Assembly (NCBI GenBank): GCA_051650965.1 | Contig: JBOFRL010000097.1 | Span: 405 to 64,404, forward strand | DNA length: 64,000 nt | Source: Vibrionaceae bacterium | GTDB lineage: Bacteria > Pseudomonadota > Gammaproteobacteria > Enterobacterales > Vibrionaceae | Reading direction: 5' to 3' | Part shown: positions 14,893 through 64,000 of the stretch, piece after piece | Layout of the letters: each line of letters begins with the position of its first letter | Numbering within the stretch: the stretch's first letter is position 1 | Program-made: the position numbers and the translations under genes | Notes under the pieces: generated by a model | What the model saw: only the letters and a program-made list of their open reading frames with translations | What the model was told of the DNA's origin: nothing | Database searches by the model: none

Positions 14893-17508
14893 TTAGAAAT
14901 TGGCAATCGCGGTGCGCCATTTGCTCCACTCAGGCTTTGGCTCGTTATGCAGCAAAAAGTGCTGATTTGAGCGAACCCGTGGGCGCAGCGTTGGCGTCTC
15001 TGGCGTTGCAAAAGCGATCCCGCCGCGAATGATGCTGTCGACCGTGCCGGCTTTGACATCTGCGCCGCTTAGGCCAAGTTTGACGTTCACGCCCGACTGG
15101 TTCCAAAACACAGTGTTTTCTCGCACTAAGTGTTTGTATTCATCAGCAATTTTTATGTTGATCAACACGCGATCGGCAAATTTGCCCAGCGACGTTTTCG
15201 TCACCGCGCCAACTTCAAAATCACGGAACAAGATAGGCGTGCCAACGCTGATAGAGTTGCGCGCTTCGCTTTCTAGCACCAAAGAGAGGCCGTTAGAAAA
15301 CTCTTCAGAGTTGTGCAGCGTAAACTGATGACGCAGCTCACCTTTTCCTGGCGTGACCGAAATGTAAGCGCCGAGTAACGAGTCAAGATTTTTGGTCTGC
15401 GTCAGGCTTAACGTCGGCGAAGCCAGCCAAAAATAGCTCGATTTTTTAGCGATGTTGTTGGCAAATTGCGAGTAGATTTTTGCGTCAATCATCACGCCTG
15501 CGCGGTTAAACGCCGGTGACAGCGCGGTCACTTCGCCCACTTTGATCCCTTGGAAGCGAATGTCGCTGCCAACAGAGAGGCCGCTCGCGTGCTCAGCGGT
15601 GAAATTGATAGCAAGTCCTTGATTTTGCGCTTCGGTTAAGCTGCTGTACAAAATCCAGTTGCCATTCTTTTTGTTGGTAACGCCTGGAACATTGCCAAAA
15701 GAGATCCCGCCAATCACCATCGATTTTAAAGAGCCCGTTTGGATATTGACGCCCGCAAGGCTTGCGCGAATATCAATGCCCGATTGATCCCAGAAAACGG
15801 TTTGGTTGGTGAGCAGGTGCGCGTAGCGGTTTTCGATTAACAGCTTGATCCTTAAGTAGTCTTTTTCAAGCGAGAATTGAGAAACTTTACCCACAGTGAC
15901 GTTTTTGTACAGTACCGGACTGCCTTCTGAAATCGACGGCAAAGTTTGCGCAATCAAATCCACTTGTTTGTAGCTCGGCTTGCCGCTGTTGGTCTGCTTG
16001 GCCTGAGATTCTGAATCAAAAAGATGGTATTGATGCCCCGCTTTGGCGTTGCCGGCGCTGGTAAAGCTTATCGCGCTTTGCATAAGCTGTGCGACCGCTG
16101 GCACATTGAACTCCACGCCTTCGCTGCTAATTTGCCCCGAGATGCCGCCTGAGCGGAAAAAGCGCGACTCGCTTTTGACCAGATGACGGTATTGCGGGTA
16201 GATGATCACATCGATAAACAGTTGATTTACATCAAGAGAGGTGTCGTAGACAAAGCCCACTTCCACGCCGCGATAGACAATCTGCGTGCTCTCGCTGATC
16301 CCCGATAAATCTTCTGCAGTCAGGCGCAGCTTGAGCGCGCTCGGATCATCAGCAAACTGCTGCTTTTTGGTTTTTGCGACAAAATAGTTGCACGGCTCGC
16401 CTTCGCCAGGCTCAATCGACAAGGTGTTGCCAAGGAAAATGTTGGAGACATTTTTCGCGCCCGCTAAAGAGAGAACCGGCTCTTCAATGGTGAATTGGCT
16501 GTCGTCCTTCAAAAGCCAGCCCATGCTCGGGTCGATATTGGCCGTCGCGGTGATGGAGTTGCTTTTTTTGTCTTGGGTAATGCCGCTGAGGCGACCAATT
16601 TCTAGCCCTTGGTAGAGGATCGCCGCACGGTTATCTTTAATGCCATGATTTTTTGGCAGATCAAGTGTGATGGCGATGCCGCGCTCAGCTTCATTGATCG
16701 ACGAATACAAGGCAAATTTGGTTTTGTTAGCGATGCTGTTGCCTTCGGCGGGCGAGTCGAAGGTGACGCCGCCGGCGATGATGCTGGCCAAGTTTTCGAT
16801 ATCGACATTGATGCCGCCAAGGCCAAGATTGGCTTTAACGCCGCTCACGTTCCAAAAGCGCGAGGTGTCTTTGACGAGATCGGCGTATTTTTTCTGGATC
16901 TGCACGGAAAGCAAAACATGCTGCTTATCTTCGCTCAGCTCGTAGTTAAAAATTTCACCGACTTGGATTTTTTTGTAGTAAACCCCTGAGCCAATGTTGA
17001 GCGACCTTAAGTCGTCTGAAGAAAGGTACAAGAAGAGGTTATCTTGCTCAGGCTCGGCGTTGGGCGCTTCGGGCATCGCGACAAATGTCGACGACATTTC
17101 GCTCGACTCGCCAGGCTTGACCACCAAGTAGTTGCCGCTCACCAGCGTATCAAGACCGCTGATCCCAGTGAGTGACGCTTTTGGCCTCACCACCCAGAAC
17201 ATCGTATCTCGGCTCAATAAATGGGTCGCCTGTGGGAAAATTTCGGCCTCGGCTATCACGCCGTCGAGCGAATCGTCCAGCGTCACTTTGCGAATGACAC
17301 CGATATCGAGTCCTTGATAGCGAATGGCGGTGCGGTTGACCTCAATGCCTTGCGCGTCTCGCAGCTGAATGGTGATGCGCTCGCCAGTTTCGCTAAACGA
17401 GCGGTAACCGAGCCACGCCGCCAGCGCGAGGGCTATCAGCGTAAATAGCCACAGGGGCGAAATGGTACTTTTTTTAATATGGGTGTTAGGGATCTCTTCG
17501 TGAGTCAT
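14893..17508 (-). CDS. yebT: Multi-MCE-domain intermembrane lipid transport protein (YebT/LetB, PqiB family)
   Basis: ISPLW N-terminus with TM and repeated MCE modules (G..V.Y+G..VG.V; FW..SG). 871 aa; downstream of yebS. Confidence 0.93.
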   Translation of the reverse strand: MTHEEIPNTHIKKSTISPLWLFTLIALALAAWLGYRSFSETGERITIQLRDAQGIEVNRTAIRYQGLDIGVIRKVTLDDSLDGVIAEAEIFPQATHLLSRDTMFWVVRPKASLTGISGLDTLVSGNYLVVKPGESSEMSSTFVAMPEAPNAEPEQDNLFLYLSSDDLRSLNIGSGVYYKKIQVGEIFNYELSEDKQHVLLSVQIQKKYADLVKDTSRFWNVSGVKANLGLGGINVDIENLASIIAGGVTFDSPAEGNSIANKTKFALYSSINEAERGIAITLDLPKNHGIKDNRAAILYQGLEIGRLSGITQDKKSNSITATANIDPSMGWLLKDDSQFTIEEPVLSLAGAKNVSNIFLGNTLSIEPGEGEPCNYFVAKTKKQQFADDPSALKLRLTAEDLSGISESTQIVYRGVEVGFVYDTSLDVNQLFIDVIIYPQYRHLVKSESRFFRSGGISGQISSEGVEFNVPAVAQLMQSAISFTSAGNAKAGHQYHLFDSESQAKQTNSGKPSYKQVDLIAQTLPSISEGSPVLYKNVTVGKVSQFSLEKDYLRIKLLIENRYAHLLTNQTVFWDQSGIDIRASLAGVNIQTGSLKSMVIGGISFGNVPGVTNKKNGNWILYSSLTEAQNQGLAINFTAEHASGLSVGSDIRFQGIKVGEVTALSPAFNRAGVMIDAKIYSQFANNIAKKSSYFWLASPTLSLTQTKNLDSLLGAYISVTPGKGELRHQFTLHNSEEFSNGLSLVLESEARNSISVGTPILFRDFEVGAVTKTSLGKFADRVLINIKIADEYKHLVRENTVFWNQSGVNVKLGLSGADVKAGTVDSIIRGGIAFATPETPTLRPRVRSNQHFLLHNEPKPEWSKWRTAIANF

Positions 17509-17512
17509 GATA

Positions 17513-18772
17513 TTACTGCGCTCTCGTTATTTTCGTGTTGATTTGTCTATGGTATTTGGCAAGTTTGGACTGCTCTGCGCTATCCCAGATCAGCCGAGGA
17601 TCTAAACTTTCCGCCGCTAGCATGGTGAAAACGACGACCAAACTAAAGGCGGTCGCGCCAGGCCCTGGGGAAAATCCCAGCAAATTGTCTCGGTCAAGCA
17701 GGGTCATAATAATGGTGATCACACAAATATCGACCATCGACCATTTGCCAATGAAATGAACCCAGTGATATAGCTTACTGCGAAAGCGAAATCCGCGGTC
17801 GCGCCGAAAATGGATGCACAGTAAGATGTATGTTAAGCCAATGATTTTTGCAATCGGGATGACGATACTGGCCAAAAAGATGATGATTGCCACGCTGTAC
17901 ATGCCGGCTTTCACCATCGCCGCGACGCCGGACAAGATAGTATCTTCAAAGCGGCGACCGTTGGTCAATAAAATTGAAATCGGCAGCATGTTCGCGGGAA
18001 AAATGAAAAAGATCGCAAGCGACATCAAATACCACGTTTTTTGCAAGCTGCCGCTTTTACGCGTTGCGAGGCGGTGCGTGCAGCGCGCGCAGTGCGAAGC
18101 GTGGGTTTGCGTAAACGAGCAGTGCTCGCAGGTGATAATTTGCGTCAGATCTTGCCAAGAGCCGCGCATGGCGTAGCCAAGGTTAGGCTCAAGGCGGTCC
18201 CAATAGCGCTCAATACACATGCGCGATAATAAAATCGTAAGCGCAATGTGCAATAAAACGAAGCAGATCAAGCCGTAACCTGGCTCTATGTCGGTGTAGT
18301 CAATGATTTTGTAGCCGGCGATCGCAAGGCTTATCAAAAACACATCGAGCATCACCCAGTTTTGCAACTTTTTAAGCGCGCTGGTGGCGAGCAGCAGCCA
18401 CTTACGCTTTTTACGGTAAACTGCCCAGTTAGCAAGCAAAATCGCCAGCAGATAGAGCAGCGGCGCGACGATGGTGCAGATAACTAGCAAAATGGCGACA
18501 AAGGGAAATGAGGCGAACAGCGCCTTCGAGCCGCTAAAAACAGACGTCTGCAACTCAACGCCGAGTAAATTTATGGTTAACAGCGCTGAGTTTAGCGCCG
18601 GAATAAAGAGCAGTAGCGCAGCGACGGTAAGCGCTAATTCTCCCGAAAACAGCAAAGCATCATGCTTGCCAACTTTGGAGTGGCAGCAAGGGCAGCGGGC
18701 GCTGTGACGGGATCTTAGCACCATATTTTGCTGCAAGAGGGCGTCACAGCTATGACAGCGGTAAATGCGCAT
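17513..18772 (-). CDS. yebS: Paraquat-inducible A family inner membrane protein (YebS/LetA)
   Basis: Two Cys-rich CxxC...CxxC motifs each followed by TM bundles; FPANMLPI, GKWSMVDI and DPRLIWD. Confidence 0.93.
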   Translation of the reverse strand: MRIYRCHSCDALLQQNMVLRSRHSARCPCCHSKVGKHDALLFSGELALTVAALLLFIPALNSALLTINLLGVELQTSVFSGSKALFASFPFVAILLVICTIVAPLLYLLAILLANWAVYRKKRKWLLLATSALKKLQNWVMLDVFLISLAIAGYKIIDYTDIEPGYGLICFVLLHIALTILLSRMCIERYWDRLEPNLGYAMRGSWQDLTQIITCEHCSFTQTHASHCARCTHRLATRKSGSLQKTWYLMSLAIFFIFPANMLPISILLTNGRRFEDTILSGVAAMVKAGMYSVAIIIFLASIVIPIAKIIGLTYILLCIHFRRDRGFRFRSKLYHWVHFIGKWSMVDICVITIIMTLLDRDNLLGFSPGPGATAFSLVVVFTMLAAESLDPRLIWDSAEQSKLAKYHRQINTKITRAQ

Positions 18773-51002: not shown

Positions 51003-51079
<77 letters not shown>

Positions 51080-55610: not shown

Positions 55611-56276
55611 TTAGTCGTTTCCGCCTAAAAAGCCCAGCAGTTGGAGCAGGCTTAAAAACAGGTTGTAGATAGAAACATAAAGTGAAATTGTCGCAGAAAT
55701 GTAGTTAGTTTCACCGCCACGAATGATTGATTGTGTGGTGAGCAAAATGGCCGCGGTTGAGAACAAGACAAAAAGGCCGCTGAGTGCTAAAGAGAGCATC
55801 GGCATGTTTAAAAAGATATTCGCTACCGTTCCCACCAAAATAACGATAAATCCAGCCAGTAGCATGCCATTTAAGAACGAGAGATCACGCTTAGTGGTTA
55901 GCGCGTAGGCAGAGCACGCTAAAAAGGTCAGCGCGGTGCCGCCAAGTGCTGGCACGATTGCCCAGCCTAAGCCGGCGCTGATGTACATATTCAGGATGGG
56001 GCCTAAGGTGTAGCCAAGAAATCCCGTGAATAAAAAGGTGAATACCAGTCCAAGCGAGCTGTTACGATTTTTTTCGGTTAAAAAGAGCAGTCCATAAAAA
56101 CCGGCGAGCATAACGATAAGCCCTGGCCGTGGCAACTCCATAGCCATTGAAATTGCAGCAATTGCGGATGACCAAAGCAGAGTTAGCGAAAGTAAAAAAT
56201 AGGTATTTCTTAGAACCTTGTTGCTACTAAGTGCACTGTCGCGATGAGAACTTTGGGTAATAGTATGGATATCCAT
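55611..56276 (-). CDS. yccA: Bax inhibitor-1/YccA family FtsH modulator
   Basis: NKVLRNTYFLLSLTLLWS, 7 TM segments, GGETNYISATISLYVSIYNLF. Confidence 0.96.
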   Translation of the reverse strand: MDIHTITQSSHRDSALSSNKVLRNTYFLLSLTLLWSSAIAAISMAMELPRPGLIVMLAGFYGLLFLTEKNRNSSLGLVFTFLFTGFLGYTLGPILNMYISAGLGWAIVPALGGTALTFLACSAYALTTKRDLSFLNGMLLAGFIVILVGTVANIFLNMPMLSLALSGLFVLFSTAAILLTTQSIIRGGETNYISATISLYVSIYNLFLSLLQLLGFLGGND

Positions 56277-56472
56277 AGTGGTCTCTCAGTTATTAACTTG
56301 TTGAATTAATTAAGCAGCATATCTTGAGAATTTAGCCATGCTAAAAGCAACTGTATAAATTTCACATGCTGCTGATCAAGTAGTATGTATCAGCGCGTAG
56401 CAGAATAAAAGTTTTTTAAAAGTAAAAAGATATTTATTTTCTGTTAATTGAGAAAAATATTGTTATTGCGAC

Positions 56473-56514
56473 TTTTAAATTTCTATAAAAAATTAATGTT
56501 TTTTTAAATTTCTA
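56473..56514 (+). repeat. 13-bp direct repeat TTTTAAATTTCTA, two copies 29 bp apart
   Basis: Copies at 56473-56485 and 56502-56514. The second overlaps TGTTTTTTTAAAT (56497-56509), which fits the toxbox consensus yrTTTTwTwAdww. Confidence 0.55.
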
Positions 56515-56799
56515 ATTACTGATTTAACCCGTTGTTATTAGTGTTTTTTATTTAACGTCTTAATTCTGATAGTGAAAAAAAAGGAGTTAAACGTAAACTT
56601 AAGGAAATTCAATCTAGTGCAGAAACCATGGGCATTTAGGTTGATCGAAGAGTAAGAAGCCGTTAGTAGATTTCTTATGGTTGTTAGTGTGTTGTGTTTG
56701 TATTTCGTGAGTCGAATTTAGGTTGTTCGATTTTATTTGTACGTGTGAAAGAGTTATTTATCACTACCCACATAGTCAATTAATGCAATGGAGAAAAGT

Positions 56800-57438
56800 A
56801 TGTTCTTATCAGCAAAAAAAATGAAAAAACAAGTCGGTATGACTTTATTAGAAGTCATTATCGTTCTGGGTATTATGGGGGTTATTGCGGCGGGCGTTGT
56901 CGTTCTCGCGCAACGTGCAATCGATAACCAAAATATCTCTAAATTAAGCCAGGCATTAAATACTATCCAAACTGGTCTTATTCAAACATATAGAGGCAAA
57001 GCGTCTTACCCTGCAGTGTCAACAGCAGCTGAAATTCAGCAACTAAGGGAAGCGTTGGTTTCAATGGGACGTGCATCTGATACTGACTTTTTAAACCCAT
57101 TCACAGGTGACCCAATTGACGTGCTAACCACAGCTGTTAATGGCGTGCCAAATAAAGCTTTTGGTATTCGCGTTGGTAACTTGAGCCAAGAGCAATGCCG
57201 CTCTGTGATCACATCTGCAACGGATCTCTTTACGTTCATCCAAATCACAGCACCAGGCGGCACCATTGCACCAGATCAATATGTTGATGCAGTGGCAGAT
57301 ACCGGTATGAACATTATCAAATCTCCTACAGGTAATGGTCAGCAATTCGACGTAGCAAACCTAGAGCACATCACTAACTTATGTGGCGGCTCAACAGGTG
57401 CTAATGCGTTCTACGACGTGTATGTCGGCGGCCGATAA
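56800..57438 (+). CDS. tcpA: Type IVb major pilin, TcpA-like
   Basis: Prepilin site KKQVG|MTLLEVIIVLGIMGVIAAGVVVLAQRAID, with Met1 and Glu5, closely resembling the TcpA alpha1. Mature length 199 aa; Cys120 and Cys182 delimit the D-region. ATG at 56800 has GGAG 6 nt upstream; the ORF-track start is 56788. Confidence 0.9.
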   Translation: MFLSAKKMKKQVGMTLLEVIIVLGIMGVIAAGVVVLAQRAIDNQNISKLSQALNTIQTGLIQTYRGKASYPAVSTAAEIQQLREALVSMGRASDTDFLNPFTGDPIDVLTTAVNGVPNKAFGIRVGNLSQEQCRSVITSATDLFTFIQITAPGGTIAPDQYVDAVADTGMNIIKSPTGNGQQFDVANLEHITNLCGGSTGANAFYDVYVGGR

Positions 57439-57470
57439 TATCAATTAGTTATTGAGTAATTAGGTGAGAC

Positions 57471-58841
57471 ATGCTGCTAAAGCAACGGGGTGTAACGTTA
57501 CTAGAAGCAATTCTCGCCGCGGGAATATTAGGTTGGGTGATGGCATATGCCGGAACCCAACTTATGAGATACGCGGAGAGCAGAGTGCTAGATAGTACGG
57601 CAAAGAGGATGGTTGAAGATCTGAAGTGGGCACGGGATTTTCTGGAAACGCAAAAGTTTCCGCTTACTCAACCAAATCCAACAGGAAATGCTTCTCAACT
57701 TGGACTGTTTTATCGTCACAATGTTGAGTATAAGTTTGATGGTCCAGTATTAGGGCCGCACGATAGATATTATGTTACCGATCAATTTTTGCCAATGAAA
57801 CAAGAAAGTTGTCCAGAAGGTGGTGATCTTTCGCAATACCTTGAAAATGGATTACACATCGCTCCTTGCGGATATAACGGATTTAAAGGGTTGGTGAGTT
57901 TTACAGGTCTCTACGTTTATTTAAAAAAATATAACAATATTGCTATGCCAGATATAATATCATCGCCATTTTTTTTCGATACGTATTATATAATAAATGA
58001 CATAAATTATTTCGATGACATGCTTTCAGTCGCAACAAGATTATCGAATGTAGAAAGAGAAGATGGTTTTAGAGTTTTTGATAAAAATATATATTTAGCT
58101 ATTTATGATAAAAATGGACTCGGTCATATTCCTGATCAAGCAAGTTGGGTTTCATTAGAAACTGTATTAAGTAATGATTTAACGGTATTGCAAACATTTA
58201 AAACTGTAGCTGAAGCTGATACAGCCAGAAAAATCGGAATAGTAATAAGAACAAGACTCAATGAATCGAGCGTATATTTGAAAAGAGATGGCTCAATCAC
58301 AATGGAAAAAGATAAGGCACTTTGTTGGTCAACAGAAAATAATAATTTAATGCCATGTATCTCGTCTTTTTCTTCTACTGATAGCCCTGAATTAGTGAAT
58401 TCTATTGTTGTTGACGCACCTAATTTTTTATATGGAAAAGATGTGAAAAGATCGCCGCCAATTGTTGGTTATCACACCTTTTCAAATGGGAATGCGGTAA
58501 GGATCCCTCATATGAAGTGTCCATTTGATGACACAGGAAATATTAAAACAGTTGAAAAAATAGTAGCGATGCCTAGCTCTTTTTCAACTGGCTCTGAGAA
58601 CAGCACAAATTTTACAGACCCAAGTAATATAGTGAGTAAAGGTACAAAAGGTGCAAATGGTAAACATGCTTTTACTGCAGGTTTGTCACTTGAATGGACT
58701 GATGATACAGATAAATCTGAATGGGTTGTTAAAGGTTCTGTTGCTATTGATTCTGCTTATTCTGAAGCAAACAATAATAGCTCAGTAATTAGAAATCCAA
58801 ATTCGATATCATTTATTACGCTGCAATGGTGTGAGGGATAA
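57471..58841 (+). CDS. tcpB: Type IVb minor/tip pilin, TcpB-like
   Basis: Short leader MLLKQRG|VTLLEAIL with Glu5; 456 aa; six Cys; beta-rich C-terminus ending NP.SISFITLQWC; directly after the major pilin. Confidence 0.8.
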   Translation: MLLKQRGVTLLEAILAAGILGWVMAYAGTQLMRYAESRVLDSTAKRMVEDLKWARDFLETQKFPLTQPNPTGNASQLGLFYRHNVEYKFDGPVLGPHDRYYVTDQFLPMKQESCPEGGDLSQYLENGLHIAPCGYNGFKGLVSFTGLYVYLKKYNNIAMPDIISSPFFFDTYYIINDINYFDDMLSVATRLSNVEREDGFRVFDKNIYLAIYDKNGLGHIPDQASWVSLETVLSNDLTVLQTFKTVAEADTARKIGIVIRTRLNESSVYLKRDGSITMEKDKALCWSTENNNLMPCISSFSSTDSPELVNSIVVDAPNFLYGKDVKRSPPIVGYHTFSNGNAVRIPHMKCPFDDTGNIKTVEKIVAMPSSFSTGSENSTNFTDPSNIVSKGTKGANGKHAFTAGLSLEWTDDTDKSEWVVKGSVAIDSAYSEANNNSSVIRNPNSISFITLQWCEG

Positions 58842-58844
58842 CAA

Positions 58845-59450
58845 ATGGTTAGAGGTTTGCTATTATTGTTCTTTTTATTTATTACTGGCTGCTCAGCAGA
58901 TATGTATGCCAGCAATAATAAAGATGAAGATGATTTTTTTGGAGTGTCTGAAGAGCCATTCGAATTAGAAGATAATTCAGCAACTATTGTGGATGATACT
59001 ACTTATTCTGATGGCGTAAATACAATTCCAAAAATAGGCATCACAGAAGCAGAAAATAATTACGCTGCAGCGAATAGTGTTGAAGGCCTTCCTATACAAA
59101 CAATAAGCTACACCCCTAATAAGCCTGCAGAAAGCTTTGTTTCACCCATGCCAGCAGAGGCGAGAGCAACATTAAAAGAAGATCCAGTAAAAATTTCTTA
59201 CACACTTTCTTTAAAGAATGGCGATTCATTAAAAAGTAAACTCAATCTCTTCTTAAAGCAGTATGGCTATAAATTAATATGGAAGACTGAGTATGATGTA
59301 TTTTTCGAAAATGAAGTTGTTTATTACAATGATTCATTTATTCCTTTATTGAAAAACATTGCATCAGATTTAATGGGCATGGGAATTGATGTCCACATGA
59401 ATGTCTATGTTAAAAATAATGTTGTGCTGGTTTACTCAGTGAGAAATTAA
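58845..59450 (+). CDS. tcpQ: TcpQ-domain secretin-associated lipoprotein
   Basis: Lipobox FITG|CS, acidic linker and C-terminal TcpQ-like domain (LKNGDSLKSKL…YGYKLIWKTEYD); sits between tcpB and the secretin. Confidence 0.65.
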   Translation: MVRGLLLLFFLFITGCSADMYASNNKDEDDFFGVSEEPFELEDNSATIVDDTTYSDGVNTIPKIGITEAENNYAAANSVEGLPIQTISYTPNKPAESFVSPMPAEARATLKEDPVKISYTLSLKNGDSLKSKLNLFLKQYGYKLIWKTEYDVFFENEVVYYNDSFIPLLKNIASDLMGMGIDVHMNVYVKNNVVLVYSVRN

Positions 59451-59451
59451 A

Positions 59452-60900
59452 ATGAAAAAAAACATAATTACAGCAGCGCTCATATTATCTTTGTCATCAT
59501 GTTCATTTACGTCAAATACGCCTGAAGCAGATGAGAATTTAGATAAGATCATAGAGGATGGAATTTCTTCCTTAAATAAGAGGACGGATAATTTCAGTGT
59601 TTTTGATGGCTCTTACGTCACGGTTGAAAAGAATGTTACGCATTCTAAACATTATCGCGACCCAATAGATTTCTTTGGCGTCAAGCCAATGAATATCCAT
59701 CAAACATTAGATATGTTGGAAAATTTATATAACAGACCATCCTATATCGCAGATATAAATAGCATCAAAGAAGAGTTGCGCGAACAAATTAATAAAGATG
59801 AAAAGCGAGTGGTATTTAAAGGAAACTTGGGTGACTTTTTAAATTACCTTGGCAAATTGTACGGCGTTACAATGACCTTGGATGAAAAAGACATCATCAA
59901 AGTTAACTTTTACACATCAAAAACTTATACCCTCGATCAATATCTTGATGGTAATAAAGCGTCAGCTGCGCTTTCCGTTGGTGGTGGTGAAGGGAACAGC
60001 GGCGGCTTGACAGCAAGTTCAGAAAGTAAAGTGGAATCAGACACTTGGAAAAAAGTGGAAAAATTCCTTGATGACGCAATCGGTGAAGATGGCCGCGCGA
60101 CCATTTTAGAAGATTTTTCAATCGTTAAAGTGACGGCAAGGCCTTGGGTTATCGACGAACTCGATGAGCTATTCGATCGACTCAAAAAAGAAAGTCAAAT
60201 GCAGGTTTCTGTTAAATATAGAATTATTGCAATTAGCAAAGAAAAAATAGATCAACTTGCGGCAAAATTTGGTATTAACAGAGTCGGTGATGATTACACC
60301 ATTTTGACCGACATTGTTGACGCCATTTCATTAAGTCAAGTTGGCGGCGGCTTAGCAGGAACGCGTCGCTCAGTAGAAGGGCGGCTTGATGCGATAGTTA
60401 AAAGTATTTCACAAGAAACGATCAGCAAAGGGCAAATGGTCGGTTTACCTAACCGCATCATGCCAATAAATTTGACTACCACAACATCGTATATTCAAGA
60501 AATCACAAGAGAGCAAAACGATAATACCGGTAATATCAACCAGTCTACTAAAGCGGGCGAAATTACCACGGGATTGAGCATATTAATATTGCCAAAAGTT
60601 TTAGATGATGGCCGTATTCAATTAACATCCGGTTTTACTGAGAAGAAATTAGTTAAATTAAGTTCATTAGATGGCGTGCAATTACCGACTATCGATGAAA
60701 CAGAAACATTATCCACTGTCACAATTGATTCTGGCAGCATCGAGATGATAGCCCTTTATACCGAAACCGCCAGAAATAATGAAAAAGGTATGCAGCTGCT
60801 TGGCGCCGGTATTGAAAAGAAAAAAGATGACAGAATGATAGCCGTATTAATTGGAGCCGACAGTTACAAATTATCTAGCTCAGTATCGAAAAGGGGCTAG
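59452..60900 (+). CDS. tcpC: Type IVb pilus outer membrane secretin lipoprotein, TcpC-like
   Basis: Lipobox LSS|CS; 482 aa; N-domain SESKVESDTWKKVE, secretin motifs PINLTTTTSYI and TTGLSILILPKVL.DGRIQL, and QLPTIDE. Confidence 0.88.
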   Translation: MKKNIITAALILSLSSCSFTSNTPEADENLDKIIEDGISSLNKRTDNFSVFDGSYVTVEKNVTHSKHYRDPIDFFGVKPMNIHQTLDMLENLYNRPSYIADINSIKEELREQINKDEKRVVFKGNLGDFLNYLGKLYGVTMTLDEKDIIKVNFYTSKTYTLDQYLDGNKASAALSVGGGEGNSGGLTASSESKVESDTWKKVEKFLDDAIGEDGRATILEDFSIVKVTARPWVIDELDELFDRLKKESQMQVSVKYRIIAISKEKIDQLAAKFGINRVGDDYTILTDIVDAISLSQVGGGLAGTRRSVEGRLDAIVKSISQETISKGQMVGLPNRIMPINLTTTTSYIQEITREQNDNTGNINQSTKAGEITTGLSILILPKVLDDGRIQLTSGFTEKKLVKLSSLDGVQLPTIDETETLSTVTIDSGSIEMIALYTETARNNEKGMQLLGAGIEKKKDDRMIAVLIGADSYKLSSSVSKRG

Positions 60901-60902
60901 CT

Positions 60903-61373
60903 ATGTTTGATGAGTTTGTCTGGCTAATAAAAGGCGATGATTCTTATCGTAATTACCTAGCTAAAAAATGGCGTACGGTAATTAGTGTCAAAATGAAAAA
61001 TGGGGATGTTTATTTTTGCTTGTCTAAAAATAAACAATTTGTTAGTGATGAAGAAAAAACAAAATTACTCGCCCCTATTTGTGTAAATAATGACGAGTAT
61101 AAAGATTGCATTGTTGTTTTAGATGAAGACGAACAAGCAGGTTTTGTTTGGATACAGAAACGTTGTTTTTGTATAAGCAGAAAAATGATTGATGATTTTT
61201 CAAAATCAGAGCTAAGTTTTTTCTCTGGCAGAAAAGTAAATATTAAATCTGCTTCGAAGATGGTCTCTGAAAATGCAATTGTTGTTAAATCATCGTCATT
61301 TGTGACAATAGTGTTGCTGAATCTTTTTGCGGTACTCTTGTTTGCCGCTGGAGTTTATGTATGGTTGTTTTAG
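60903..61373 (+). CDS. tcpR: Pilus biogenesis protein, TcpR-like (by synteny and size)
   Basis: 156 aa with a C-terminal TM helix; fifth position in the A-B-Q-C-R-D-S-T order. Confidence 0.5.
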   Translation: MFDEFVWLIKGDDSYRNYLAKKWRTVISVKMKNGDVYFCLSKNKQFVSDEEKTKLLAPICVNNDEYKDCIVVLDEDEQAGFVWIQKRCFCISRKMIDDFSKSELSFFSGRKVNIKSASKMVSENAIVVKSSSFVTIVLLNLFAVLLFAAGVYVWLF

Positions 61374-62146
61374 ATAAGATCAGATTGCCATCTAAAGCGG
61401 TGATGATATATATAGTGATTTTTATAATATTCTCCATTGTTATTGCAACGGGTTATTTTTATAAAACACGTACTAGGACTGATGCCAGCGCACAATTGGC
61501 AAAACAAAAACAGATGAAAATAGATAACGATCGAGCGAGCTATACATCTGGAATAGATACAATATTGCAATCAAGTGATATAAAAGAATTAAAGAAAATG
61601 TATGGTCTTCTTTTGGGTGATTTTAAGTTCATGCAGGCTGCAGGTTGGAGAGCAAATGAAGCACTCTGCACTGTAAATTCATGCAACTTATCATTCAAAA
61701 AAATACCAAATAGGATGTTTGAGTATGTCGTTATAAAAAAGGGGGATAAAACTTATGAACCTATATTTAATGAAGAGCAAATGACTTTTCAAGACGTGAT
61801 ATTAGACATTAATTTAAAAGCAAATGAAGTTTATAAAGATAATATGGATAATGTGTCTGACTGCAAAAGTTTTATCTCAAAAACTTATCAGCTGAATAAT
61901 CTGTTTCAGTCAGACTCGCAAAAGAAATTAACTTTAACAATGCCATCGTCTGTATTTTCGCTGAGCCAAACGTATGACTGGGCAAAATATGCAGAGATCA
62001 AAAAAGGAAATATGCTATTTAGTACGGATAATCTTCTTGCGATAGATTTTATAAATGATCAGTTCAGTGACCAAATCATCACCTATGACAGATTAGCCAT
62101 GAGTGATAAGGGAATGAATATTTCATTGAGTTATTACTGTTTTTAA
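61361..62146 (+). CDS. tcpD: Bitopic inner membrane pilus protein, TcpD-like
   Basis: 261 aa; N-terminal TM (AVMIYIVIFIIFSIVIATGYFY); periplasmic domain with GW…ALCTVNSC; sixth position. Confidence 0.55.
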   Translation: MVVLDKIRLPSKAVMIYIVIFIIFSIVIATGYFYKTRTRTDASAQLAKQKQMKIDNDRASYTSGIDTILQSSDIKELKKMYGLLLGDFKFMQAAGWRANEALCTVNSCNLSFKKIPNRMFEYVVIKKGDKTYEPIFNEEQMTFQDVILDINLKANEVYKDNMDNVSDCKSFISKTYQLNNLFQSDSQKKLTLTMPSSVFSLSQTYDWAKYAEIKKGNMLFSTDNLLAIDFINDQFSDQIITYDRLAMSDKGMNISLSYYCF

Positions 62147-62157
62147 AGAGACTTATC

Positions 62158-62571
62158 ATGAAATATAAAATATTTGCAGCATTACTGTTTTTTCCTATTA
62201 CGATTTTATCTGCGAGTGATCTTGTAGAATATGAGCGCCATTACGAAGATCTTAATCGCCTGAAAAATACATTGGAAAAATTGGAGTTACAAAAAAAGAT
62301 CAACGAAGTGCAAATGCAAATTGACAAAGATGCCTTTGCTAATTCGCCACAGCCAATTTTACCTGAAGGAGAATTTGGAAATGAAGTTTTTTCTCCCAAG
62401 GATCTCACGCTTCTTTATTTAATTGGCTCTGGAAAAAGTACTAAGGCGTTTGTACAGCACAAGGATAAAACCCTTTCATTTGCCAATGGCCAGAGTTACC
62501 AAGGATGGCTTGTGAAAATAGATGGGAAATCCGTAACTTTTTCAAAAGGCGGCAGTAGCGTTACATTATGA
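62158..62571 (+). CDS. tcpS: Periplasmic pilus protein, TcpS-like (type IVb PilP-like)
   Basis: 137 aa; signal peptide, coiled coil (LKNTLEKLELQKKINEVQ) and small beta domain; ATGA overlap with the ATPase. Confidence 0.55.
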   Translation: MKYKIFAALLFFPITILSASDLVEYERHYEDLNRLKNTLEKLELQKKINEVQMQIDKDAFANSPQPILPEGEFGNEVFSPKDLTLLYLIGSGKSTKAFVQHKDKTLSFANGQSYQGWLVKIDGKSVTFSKGGSSVTL

Positions 62572-64000
62572 AAATATATGTGCTTGATTCCATAGAAAAA
62601 GTGTCATTCTTTCGGGACAGCAACCAGATTGTTGCTAGAGTCAATAGCATTTTGTATCAAGTTGTTGCTGAAAATCAGCTGCATCAATTATTGATGAATT
62701 ACCAGCTATCCGATGAACGCAGTGGCGATGATTCTAACTTCATTGTGACGACCAATGAGCATTTCACTTTATTAGAAAATCAATTTCTAAAAAGGAATTC
62801 TGATGACGCGAACCCTAATCGCAGTTTGTCAGAAGAGCGCATTGTCAATGTGTTAGAAGAGGCGATAAAGCAAAAGGCCAGTGACGTTCATTTTATACGT
62901 GGTGATAGTACAGCGAGAATTAAGTTCCGTATTAACGGAAAAATGACAATAAACCAAGAGGTTATGGGGGCGGAGTGTGATGAGATGCTATTCGTTCTTT
63001 ATAACGTAATGGCATCGACAAAAGAAACAACGTGGAACACAAAAACTCCGCAGGATGCGAACATTTTGCTTGATGTAAATCGCGTGGGTTACCGCTTCCG
63101 TTATGCGCACATGCCTATTTTTGGTGTTGGCGTAGGCGGAAGTGCGTATCACGCTGTTGTAAGGGTTATTTATCCAAACTTGGGTAAACAAGTGTGTACT
63201 GATCTTTCTACACTTGGCCTGCGCAAAATTGAAGAAAAAATTATCGACCGTATTCTTTCAAACCCATCGGGCTTGGTTGTTGTGTCGGGTGTAACCGGCT
63301 CGGGTAAGTCGACGTCACTGAAAAACTATATGGAATACCTGTTCTACACCAAATATCAAGAGACGGGCACCTTTTTGACGGTCGAAGATCCCGTGGAATA
63401 CGTAATTGAAGGGGCGCAGCAAAGCTCTGTAACCAAATCTAAAGATGACGAAAATTTATTTGCCGTTGCCGTGCGCTCATCGATGCGCCGCGATCCCGAT
63501 GTGTTGATGATCGGTGAAATTCGTGACCAAGATACAGGGCGCGCCTTAGCATCTGCTGTTGAGTCCGGCCACTTATGTTTAACCACTGTCCATGCGGGTA
63601 ACTGCGTTGGTGTGCTGCAGCGCTTAAATGGCTTAGGTGTTGGCTTAGATAAATTATCAACACCGGGCTTTATTGTCGGTGTCATGAACCAAAAGCTGGT
63701 TCCCGTTATCTGTCCTGATTGCTCAGTTGAATTCACCAATGCCCACGGCCGTACTGTGAGGCATGAAGGCGATGGCTGCGAAACTTGCAAGCAAAAAGGA
63801 ATTGTTGGAAGAAAGCTTGTCATTGAGCAGATGATACCGGATCTTGAAGTGCTAAAAATGGTATCAGAGCAGCAGTGGGTTGATATTTATGCATATAACA
63901 AGTCAAAAAGAAGCACTGAAGGGCTCGGTGAAGGGTTTTCTATAAAAGATAAAATTTACCATCTTTGCCTAGAAGGACTCGTTTGCAACAAATACTTTAA
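62568..64000 (+). CDS. tcpT: Pilus assembly ATPase, TcpT-like (GspE/PilB family); 3' end truncated by the window
   Basis: Not in the ORF track. Reading frame from ATG 62568 (MKIYVLDS…) checked in segments through to 64000: ASDVHF, Walker A VSGVTGSGKST (63282), TVEDPVEY, Walker B RRDPDVLMIGEIRD, ESGH…TTVHA and Zn motif CPDC…GCETC. Confidence 0.92.
   Translation, partial: MKIYVLDSIEKVSFFRDSNQIVARVNSILYQVVAENQLHQLLMNYQLSDERSGDDSNFIVTTNEHFTLLENQFLKRNSDDANPNRSLSEERIVNVLEEAIKQKASDVHFIRGDSTARIKFRINGKMTINQEVMGAECDEMLFVLYNVMASTKETTWNTKTPQDANILLDVNRVGYRFRYAHMPIFGVGVGGSAYHAVVRVIYPNLGKQVCTDLSTLGLRKIEEKIIDRILSNPSGLVVVSGVTGSGKSTSLKNYMEYLFYTKYQETGTFLTVEDPVEYVIEGAQQSSVTKSKDDENLFAVAVRSSMRRDPDVLMIGEIRDQDTGRALASAVESGHLCLTTVHAGNCVGVLQRLNGLGVGLDKLSTPGFIVGVMNQKLVPVICPDCSVEFTNAHGRTVRHEGDGCETCKQKGIVGRKLVIEQMIPDLEVLKMVSEQQWVDIYAYNKSKRSTEGLGEGFSIKDKIYHLCLEGLVCNKYF

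Follow-up and report, generated by a model that had tools for sequence, protein, structure and literature searches.

A probable TCP-family type IVb pilus operon, intact and divergent, in the reduced chromosome of an uncultured Enterovibrio

The toxin-coregulated pilus (TCP), the textbook colonisation pilus of Vibrio cholerae, also serves the cholera-toxin phage as its receptor; beyond V. cholerae it has only a handful of relatives, scattered in their occurrence and functionally unstudied. The window analysed here, a stretch of 64,000 nucleotides (C97:405-64404, in a contig of 68,218 bp), closes on a run of genes that a preliminary description had taken for a complete-looking, possibly new TCP-type operon, and the question that it poses is whether this can be a working pilus locus and, if so, by what means it might operate. 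We think it probable that the low-GC segment beside yccA, in the chromosome of an uncultured, genome-reduced Enterovibrio, is an intact, divergent TCP-family type IVb pilus operon, one that would act through the mechanism, and carry the strain-variable tcpB ‘cassette’, set out below.

Eight consecutive open reading frames (ORFs) run on one strand in the order tcpA-B-Q-C-R-D-S-T, with gaps of 32, 3, 1, 2, -13, 11 and -4 bp between them, and encode products of 216, 456, 201, 482, 156, 261, 137 and 500 residues respectively, sizes that match those of the tcp operons of Aliivibrio fischeri, Enterovibrio coralii and V. cholerae. The ninth gene, tcpE, is found just beyond the end of the window, and the resulting A-B-Q-C-R-D-S-T-E order, with one T2SSE ATPase and a T2SSF platform protein, is that of the TCP family (Table 1). 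Eight tightly coupled genes in AT-rich DNA, and a TCP-family type IVb operon with this gene order, had both been put forward in the preliminary description, and both were borne out, the former by ORF calls, Pfam, gap lengths and GC content, and the latter by Pfam, Protein Data Bank (PDB) matches and gene order; chance does not account for them. Other classes of machine, namely the R64 PilN thin pilus, Tad and the type II secretion system (T2SS), were considered and rejected; the TcpA, TcpQ and TcpS domains, the TcpB fold and the order of the genes are TCP-specific.

Both pilins characteristic of the family, i.e. a TcpA-type major pilin and a three-domain pilin of the TcpB type with lectin-like C-terminal domains, are present. 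Amongst PDB entries, TcpA matches its V. cholerae counterpart (8uhf, 1.9e-45) far better than CofA (5.5e-21) of enterotoxigenic Escherichia coli (ETEC). Its cleavage site reads G/MTLLEVIIVLGIMGV (the slash marking the point of cleavage, here and below), with Met1 and Glu5 in place, and the D-region pair Cys137-Cys199 is invariant in the alignment; the likely start codon is the ATG at 56800, giving a 13-residue leader, since a GGAG motif occupies 56790-56793. For TcpB, phmmer retrieved V. cholerae TcpB itself (7w63, 9e-26, over residues 108-455; 6mic, 9e-20), whilst an AlphaFold2 model (pLDDT 70.8) submitted to Foldseek returned TcpB (3e-24), CofB (8e-16) and the C-terminal half of TcpB (6mic, TM 0.63); the only significant fold matches in the PDB were TcpB, the TcpB-TcpF peptide complex and CofB. 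Across the family, no part of TcpB is better conserved than domains 2-3, which do not vary from strain to strain.

Table 1. Features of the tcp segment and its left-hand border, in window coordinates. Identities are to the best relatives outside the host's own small clade (overall range 27-71%) and to V. cholerae.
Feature	Position	Strand	Evidence and presumed role	Identity outside clade	Identity to V. cholerae
yccA (Bax1-I family)	55611..56276	-	Pfam Bax1-I 1.5e-44; core gene; borders the low-GC tcp segment on its left		
Intergenic region upstream of tcpA	56277..56787	.	29% GC, AT-rich; presumed promoter and regulatory sites		
tcpA, major type IVb pilin	56788..57438	+	Pfam TcpA 8.9e-34 (116.9 bits against a cut-off of 25), N_methyl	54-60%	45%
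tcpB, three-domain minor (tip) pilin	57471..58841	+	7-residue leader MLLKQRG/V; pilin-like domain 1, beta-rich domains 2-3	32-38%	28%
tcpB cassette	57604..58244	+	TcpB residues 45-258: helix alpha-1 (second half) plus the globular alpha/beta-roll in pilin-like domain 1		
tcpQ-like lipoprotein	58845..59450	+	Lipobox ITGC; Pfam TcpQ 3.3e-14, residues 122-197; presumed secretin partner/stabiliser	30-34%	not listed
tcpC, outer-membrane lipoprotein secretin	59452..60900	+	Lipobox LSSC; NCBIfam PilN-family T4b secretin 8.7e-17	50-55%	38%
tcpR-position gene	60903..61373	+	156 residues, one C-terminal membrane helix; presumed inner-membrane anchor for the ATPase	35-42%	not detected
tcpD, bitopic inner-membrane assembly protein	61361..62146	+	Single membrane helix; match to V. 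cholerae TcpD 2e-16	27-34%	28%
tcpS, periplasmic protein with signal peptide	62158..62571	+	Pfam TcpS 4.2e-21	28-36%	27%
tcpT, assembly ATPase	62568..64000, cut by window end	+	Pfam T2SSE 3.6e-87; ends at window-equivalent 64070, 500 residues	61-68%	51%
tcpE, T2SSF platform	window-equivalent 64030-65073, beyond window	+	353 residues; Pfam T2SSF 3.5e-22; overlaps tcpT by 41 bp	59-71%	40%

On the sequence evidence, TcpC is the secretin of this system and TcpQ its partner, TcpR, TcpD, TcpS and TcpE form the inner-membrane/periplasmic platform, and TcpT is the sole ATPase. TcpC scores slightly under the cut-off of the Pfam Secretin profile (23.4 bits) and aligns over its full length with V. cholerae TcpC (tblastn, 1.7e-108), its identity to the homologues of A. 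fischeri and metagenome-assembled genomes (MAGs) being 54-55%; an exact-match look-up of its sequence returned no record. TcpT carries a Walker A motif (GVTGSGKST), a DVLMIGEIRD box, Asp and His boxes, and the paired cysteines CPDC...CETC (CxxC...CxxC). Of the three accessory proteins announced in the preliminary description, which are R, D and S, TcpS is secured by its Pfam domain and TcpD by its identity to the V. cholerae protein, the third having been assigned by position, size and its membrane helix. The strong divergence that had also been suspected is real, in that no described locus is near-identical; even for TcpA, TcpB, TcpC and TcpT the best matches outside the clade go no higher than the values in Table 1.

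Two close relatives of the locus were recovered through TcpB: one in GCA_051653585.1, which is conspecific with the host (dS, the synonymous divergence, 0.01-0.07), and one in GCA_051654325.1, a sister species (dS about 0.4-0.85); we refer to these loci as L036 and L037, respectively. All nine genes, tcpA to tcpE, are intact in all three genomes, as full-length ORFs free of frameshifts, and every one of them apart from tcpB is 99-100% identical between host and conspecific. In the comparison with the sister species, the ratio of nonsynonymous to synonymous divergence (dN/dS) is 0.05 for tcpC, 0.11 for tcpR, 0.10 for both tcpD and tcpS, 0.19 for tcpB and 0.30 for tcpQ. Intact genes in three genomes, together with these ratios, indicate that the operon has been kept by selection, and argue against a relic.

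A scan of named genomes placed the host as an uncultured marine Enterovibrio, in agreement with the earlier assignment to a non-cholerae member of the Vibrionaceae; its genus mates in the scan were E. coralii CAIM 912 and two uncultured Enterovibrio MAGs. The genome (2.06 Mb in 97 contigs, 96.5% complete) is strongly reduced when set beside the 5-5.7 Mb of most genus mates, and it is solely from this reduction (2.06 against ~5 Mb) that we infer host association for the lineage. A luminous anglerfish symbiont, as genus and 2-Mb size might suggest, was rejected, there being no LuxC in the genome; other reduced genomes of the genus (2.1 and 2.6 Mb) are without tcpA, tcpC and TcpF-like genes.

How might such a pilus be matured? 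Between yccA and the end of the contig there is no tcpJ, toxT, tcpPH or tcpF, and Peptidase_A24 occurs just once in the entire genome, as pilD, within a pilA-pilA-pilB-pilC-pilD-coaE cluster. The loci of A. fischeri, E. coralii and the ERR314 MAG likewise lack tcpJ; since this is true of both A. fischeri and E. coralii, its absence is the norm for the non-cholerae subfamily. Leaders of TcpA are 8-13 residues long in the tcpJ-less loci as against 25 in V. cholerae, and these short leaders, in a genome where no TcpJ exists, lead us to infer that PilD cleaves the prepilins; for TcpA and TcpB here, such processing is an assumption on our part. As for the rest of the type IVa pilus set to which pilD belongs, it has been kept in full in the 2.06-Mb genome, with two pilA genes, pilBCD and pilMNOPQ (contigs C58:1088-7023 and C41:79515-83731), and a GspD-like secretin and a third secretin (C32:17907-18773) are retained too.

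A search of the genome with the genes that occupy the tcpF position in A. fischeri and E. coralii (E down to 1e-17) identified three tandem TcpF-like genes (C30:15326-16270, 16309-17235 and 17270-18184), set among core genes (sbcB, hemH, adk, tfoX ... dCMP deaminase). The three paralogues are 40-50% identical to one another, and each encodes a signal peptide followed by a mature N-terminus of very similar design (A/FNDDFESSS, A/FNDDFTTIS and A/FNDDFTTGS). A TcpB-binding secretion signal, FxxxYxSxS, of which the FNDDF termini are a variant, and the TcpB domain-3 pocket that receives it have been published (PMC9565799), and the tcpF-position proteins themselves continue from their signal peptides into FNGDYESKS (E. 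coralii) and FDSSYESVS (A. fischeri). When a profile of the TcpF-like proteins, with signal peptides removed and V. cholerae left out, was aligned by hhalign with mature V. cholerae TcpF, the match reached a probability of 87.8% (E 3.3e-6) over the N-terminal 120 residues only.

The TcpF-like triple is kept in the same synteny in the sister reduced genome G104 (same genus, 1.9 Mb; 83% amino-acid identity), in an SRR24115960 Logan contig and in an NCBI Enterovibrio MAG, and its dN/dS in relatives is 0.09-0.23. The family is rare, with 35 cluster representatives among 1.84 billion proteins; within the 24 species representatives of the genus, it occurs only in tcpA-bearing genomes, plus the incomplete G104. 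Elsewhere in the genus, contig C10 of the ERR3140038 MAG (L030 1471-2316) encodes a TcpF-like protein with the signal FNDDYASVS, the conserved N-terminal module and a different, Cys/Trp-rich C-terminus; the gene after it is rich in RTX-like GGxGxD repeats. The occurrence of the same signal ahead of different C-termini in the ERR314 MAG copies hints at a modular delivery domain, and suggests a secretion module fused to varied effector domains.

Bringing these observations together, we propose a model whose steps of PilD cleavage, retraction and cargo carriage are drawn from the V. cholerae and ETEC literature (PMC9565799) and from general knowledge. PilD would cleave both pre-TcpA and pre-TcpB, removing leaders of about 13 and 7 residues, and a trimer of TcpB would then prime the polymerisation of TcpA, driven by TcpT upon the TcpE/R/D/S platform, with exit through the TcpC/TcpQ secretin. 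With no retraction ATPase to hand, incorporation of TcpB may trigger retraction, as it does in V. cholerae. Meanwhile domains 2-3 of TcpB (domain 3) could bind the FNDDF N-termini of the three TcpF-like proteins, exported to the periplasm by Sec, such that the growing pilus would carry these proteins out through the secretin; the pilus itself would presumably serve surface or host colonisation.

One part of the operon departs sharply from the near-identity of the two conspecific genomes. Within tcpB, a cassette of 641 bp (mapped on to the domains of the protein with the AlphaFold2 model and published domain boundaries) differs from its counterpart in GCA_051653585.1 at 198 positions (69.1% identity), with no indels, as against 65 differences in 8140 bp (99.2%) outside it; residues 261-456 of TcpB show no difference, and make up domains 2-3, the TcpF-binding part included. 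Inside the cassette dN (0.2-0.5) is elevated along with dS (0.4-1.4), and the conspecific allele is farther from that of the host than is the allele of the sister species, GCA_051654325.1. The simplest reading is a recombinational replacement from a deeper pool of alleles, and the simplest explanation for the upkeep of such divergent alleles is diversifying pressure from phage, host immunity or a receptor. Gene conversion from silent tcpB cassettes, after the fashion of Neisseria pilS, was considered and set aside, as the genome holds no second copy; so too was a filamentous prophage as the selective agent, there being no Zot homologue in the genome.

How firmly can all of this be held? Several points tell against the reading that we favour. 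The assignment of TcpR is weak, drawing as it does upon position, size, the C-terminal helix and homology to the non-cholerae R genes: the protein shares its identity (Table 1) with the same-position genes of A. fischeri, E. coralii and MAGs, BLAST detects no relationship to V. cholerae TcpR, and the hhalign match to it is weak (E 0.0023, probability 12.5%). To our knowledge, the processing of TcpA in V. cholerae needs TcpJ, and the PilD homologue there is no substitute. Neither the stretch from yccA to tcpA nor the DNA that follows tcpE contains a regulator ORF, a ToxT-like AraC protein not having been sought elsewhere in the genome; an AraC regulator adjoins tcpA in A. fischeri and E. coralii, and none is present at the ERR314 MAG locus. 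With respect to cargo, the TcpF-like genes are unlinked to the operon, on another contig, and in their signal position 5 is Phe and not Tyr, with Thr at position 7 in two of the copies. These proteins found no match in Pfam TcpF or in the PDB sequence search, and an AlphaFold2 model (pLDDT 75) found none in the PDB by Foldseek at E<=1e-3, with TcpF outside the top 50, such that only the N-terminal module is demonstrably TcpF-like. G104, only 83% complete and in 440 contigs, has no detectable tcpA or tcpC; binning may have failed to pick up so AT-rich an operon, unless the genome truly lacks it. Finally, all close relatives of the locus are MAG or Logan contigs, and the tcpB mosaic could reflect strain-mixed assembly.

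Three alternatives seem to us less likely. It is unlikely, if not strikingly so, that the pilus is real yet serves only as an adhesion or aggregation fibre, with the three TcpF-like proteins being ordinary Sec/T2SS exports whose resemblance to TcpF is ancestral and unused: the siting of their genes among core genes on a different contig, the failure to match TcpF in Pfam, in PDB sequences or in fold, the existence of a GspD-like secretin, and a G104 assembly that has the triple without tcpC would all fit, but the mature N-termini agree with the published signal in Phe1, in an aromatic fifth residue and in Ser at 7 and 9, the part of TcpB that would receive them is its best-conserved and strain-invariant part, and across the 24 genus representatives the genes keep company with tcpA, G104 excepted. 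We consider it improbable that the tcpB divergence is an artefact of metagenome assembly, the contig having been stitched from two co-occurring lineages; the host, GCA_051653585.1 and GCA_051654325.1 are indeed all represented by MAG contigs, but both conspecific contigs run continuously across the cassette with 99-100% identical DNA for kilobases on either side, the cassette is gapless and in frame, and the GCA_051653585.1 allele, being farther away than that of the sister species, is not simply the sister's sequence. Even a chimeric contig would mean that nature holds two functional alleles side by side, their flanks identical and competent for recombination. Very improbable indeed is the view that an island gained by horizontal transfer has left a decaying relic here, its pili lost with TcpJ, ToxT/TcpPH and a linked tcpF in the course of genome reduction. 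The absence of tcpJ, toxT and tcpF from the locus, the one A24 peptidase in the genome, the low GC of the segment and a split E. coralii tcpE (which shows that decay is possible at such loci) speak for it; against it stand nine full-length ORFs with dN/dS of 0.05-0.30 over dS of 0.4-0.85, their near-identity in the conspecific, retention of the operon in a genome that has lost ~60% of the content typical of the genus, and a tcpJ-less layout common to the A. fischeri, E. coralii and ERR314 MAG loci.

An intact pilus operon under selection remains the reading that we prefer, and with it the earlier claims can be adjusted. ‘Complete-looking’ holds for the A-B-Q-C-R-D-S-T-E core, which is intact, but not for tcpJ, toxT, tcpPH and tcpF, which are missing from the locus; likewise, the check for a relic that had been suggested spoke for the operon, with a tcpE beyond the window, no frameshifts and purifying selection, tcpJ being absent. 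This is a divergent new member of the family, but the novelty of the pilus had been overstated, since the literature already describes operons of TCP type, with TcpF-like cargo, in A. fischeri ES114 (PMC7468203) and in Enterovibrio coralii (PMC9565799). What is modestly new is a minimal core under selection that has neither tcpJ nor a regulator, the triplicated and unlinked TcpF-like genes, and the strain-variable domain-1 cassette of TcpB.

A strongly reduced genome that keeps this machine under purifying selection, with neither TcpJ nor ToxT, points to a minimal core of nine genes plus PilD. The varied C-terminal domains that follow one signal suggest a modular form of pilus-mediated secretion, able to serve several cargoes, and the domain-1 cassette directs attention to a particular surface of the tip complex as the part under diversifying pressure. 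In V. cholerae the polymorphic gene is tcpA; a polymorphic domain 1 of TcpB would, if true, be the reverse of this. More speculatively, and with rather more doubt than confidence, we suggest that in a genome-reduced and probably host-restricted Enterovibrio clade the TCP-like machine could be a core organelle of colonisation and secretion, run on a housekeeping peptidase, which exports three diversified TcpF-like cargoes and presents exchangeable, divergent TcpB domain-1 alleles under diversifying selection (by pilus-specific phages or host recognition, for example).

The operon lies in a low-GC segment of the chromosome. GC content is 0.33-0.43 along the tcp segment (38% overall), compared with 0.488 for the genome and 0.50-0.56 farther upstream. 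The junction of DsrC-YccA with tcpA recurs in the conspecific MAG GCA_051653585.1, and none of the loci of E. coralii, A. fischeri and the ERR314 MAG is flanked by a yccA-tcpA junction. The interval 56277..56787 contains neither a regulator gene nor a tRNA nor an integrase, att repeats, integrase and tRNA were looked for at the island borders and none found, and scans for promoters and terminators yielded no more than shuffled sequence or chance would. The sole RNA gene of the window is a tRNA-Pro (TGG) at 51003-51079 on the minus strand, 5.7 kb upstream of tcpA, with a LonB-like protease gene as its neighbour; no other tRNA occurs within 14 kb, and this one sits away from the island border.

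On the other side, tcpE is followed by a 316-bp AT-rich spacer and then, as the last gene before the contig ends, by a 748-residue ORF (GC 0.47; window-equivalent 65390-67636, beyond the window). The N-terminus of its product is rich in Ser, Thr and Asn, and its Pro/Gln-rich middle is encoded by DNA with a 54-nt tandem repeat; it has no Pfam or PDB match and no signal peptide. Homologues were found only in Enterovibrio MAGs (97% and 48% identity) and, in part, in a 1183-residue Logan protein that ends in a Tyr-phosphatase domain, and none of the genus's 23 other species representatives has the ORF. We rejected a role for it as pilus cargo, for want of a signal peptide, and as an effector of a type III secretion system (T3SS), as the genome has no T3SS secretin, its secretin matches being PilQ, the GspD-like protein and the third secretin.

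How, then, does the operon relate to those already known? Of 24 species representatives in the genus, four were found to have TcpA, as were seven of 301 across the Vibrionaceae, the other TcpA-bearing genomes in the scan being A. fischeri ES114, V. ichthyoenteri and V. cholerae, and the genes that flank these tcp loci differ. In a concatenated tree the host lineage, itself long-branched, pairs with the ERR314 Enterovibrio MAG clade as its sister group (support 99/97), with A. fischeri and E. coralii joining next and V. cholerae far off.

Within the genus, E. coralii CAIM 912 and the ERR3140038/ERR3140015 MAGs share the gene order, and have TcpF-like genes with an Fxxx[YF]xSxS signal (E. coralii is itself listed with the TcpF signal in PMC9565799); unlike the host locus, theirs are in other chromosomal contexts, and the proteins are only 27-71% identical. 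E. coralii differs further in having tcpF in the operon, AraC and EAL genes, insertion sequence (IS) elements and a split tcpE. Its tcpE falls into ORFs of 238 and 126 residues (L010 13282-14380), through a frameshift or a sequencing error, and the operon is flanked by IS (rve) fragments, the AraC and EAL genes and a partial second TcpF-like ORF. The cluster of A. fischeri ES114 (tcpABQC and tcpDSTEF, on chromosome II) belongs to the same non-cholerae subfamily, with products of near-equal size (55% identity for A, 34-36% for B, 55% for C, 66% for T and 64% for E) and no tcpJ or toxT; unlike the host locus, it has one tcpF right after tcpE, an AraC gene divergent from tcpA and a PAS/MCP tail. 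ES114 is the sole carrier of a tcp-like cluster among 66 V. fischeri genomes (PMC7468203).

With the TCP operon of Vibrio pathogenicity island 1 (VPI-1) of V. cholerae (tcpA-B-Q-C-R-D-S-T-E-F-toxT-tcpJ), the host locus has in common the A-to-E order, similar protein sizes, the TcpA, TcpQ and TcpS domains, the TcpB fold, a single ATPase with none for retraction, and a mature TcpA N-terminus, MTLLEVIIVLGIMGV, that is almost identical. In contrast to that operon, identities amount to only 27-51% and TcpR falls below BLAST detection; tcpF, toxT and tcpJ are absent from the operon, as are tcpPH and tcpI upstream; the TcpA leader is 13 residues long here as against 25; TcpQ is here a lipoprotein with a long acidic linker; and the candidate cargo genes are triplicated and unlinked. 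More distant by far are the ETEC pili CFA/III (cof) and Longus, which are enterobacterial and plasmid-borne. These are nonetheless machines of the same class, with a type IVb pilin, a lipoprotein secretin, one ATPase and a three-domain minor pilin, which in their case binds a secreted protein (CofJ) at that protein's N-terminus, and there are matches to CofA (5.5e-21) and to the CofB fold (8e-16). Their cargo signal, moreover, is of the SxGGAFT type and not FxxxYxSxS (PMC9565799).

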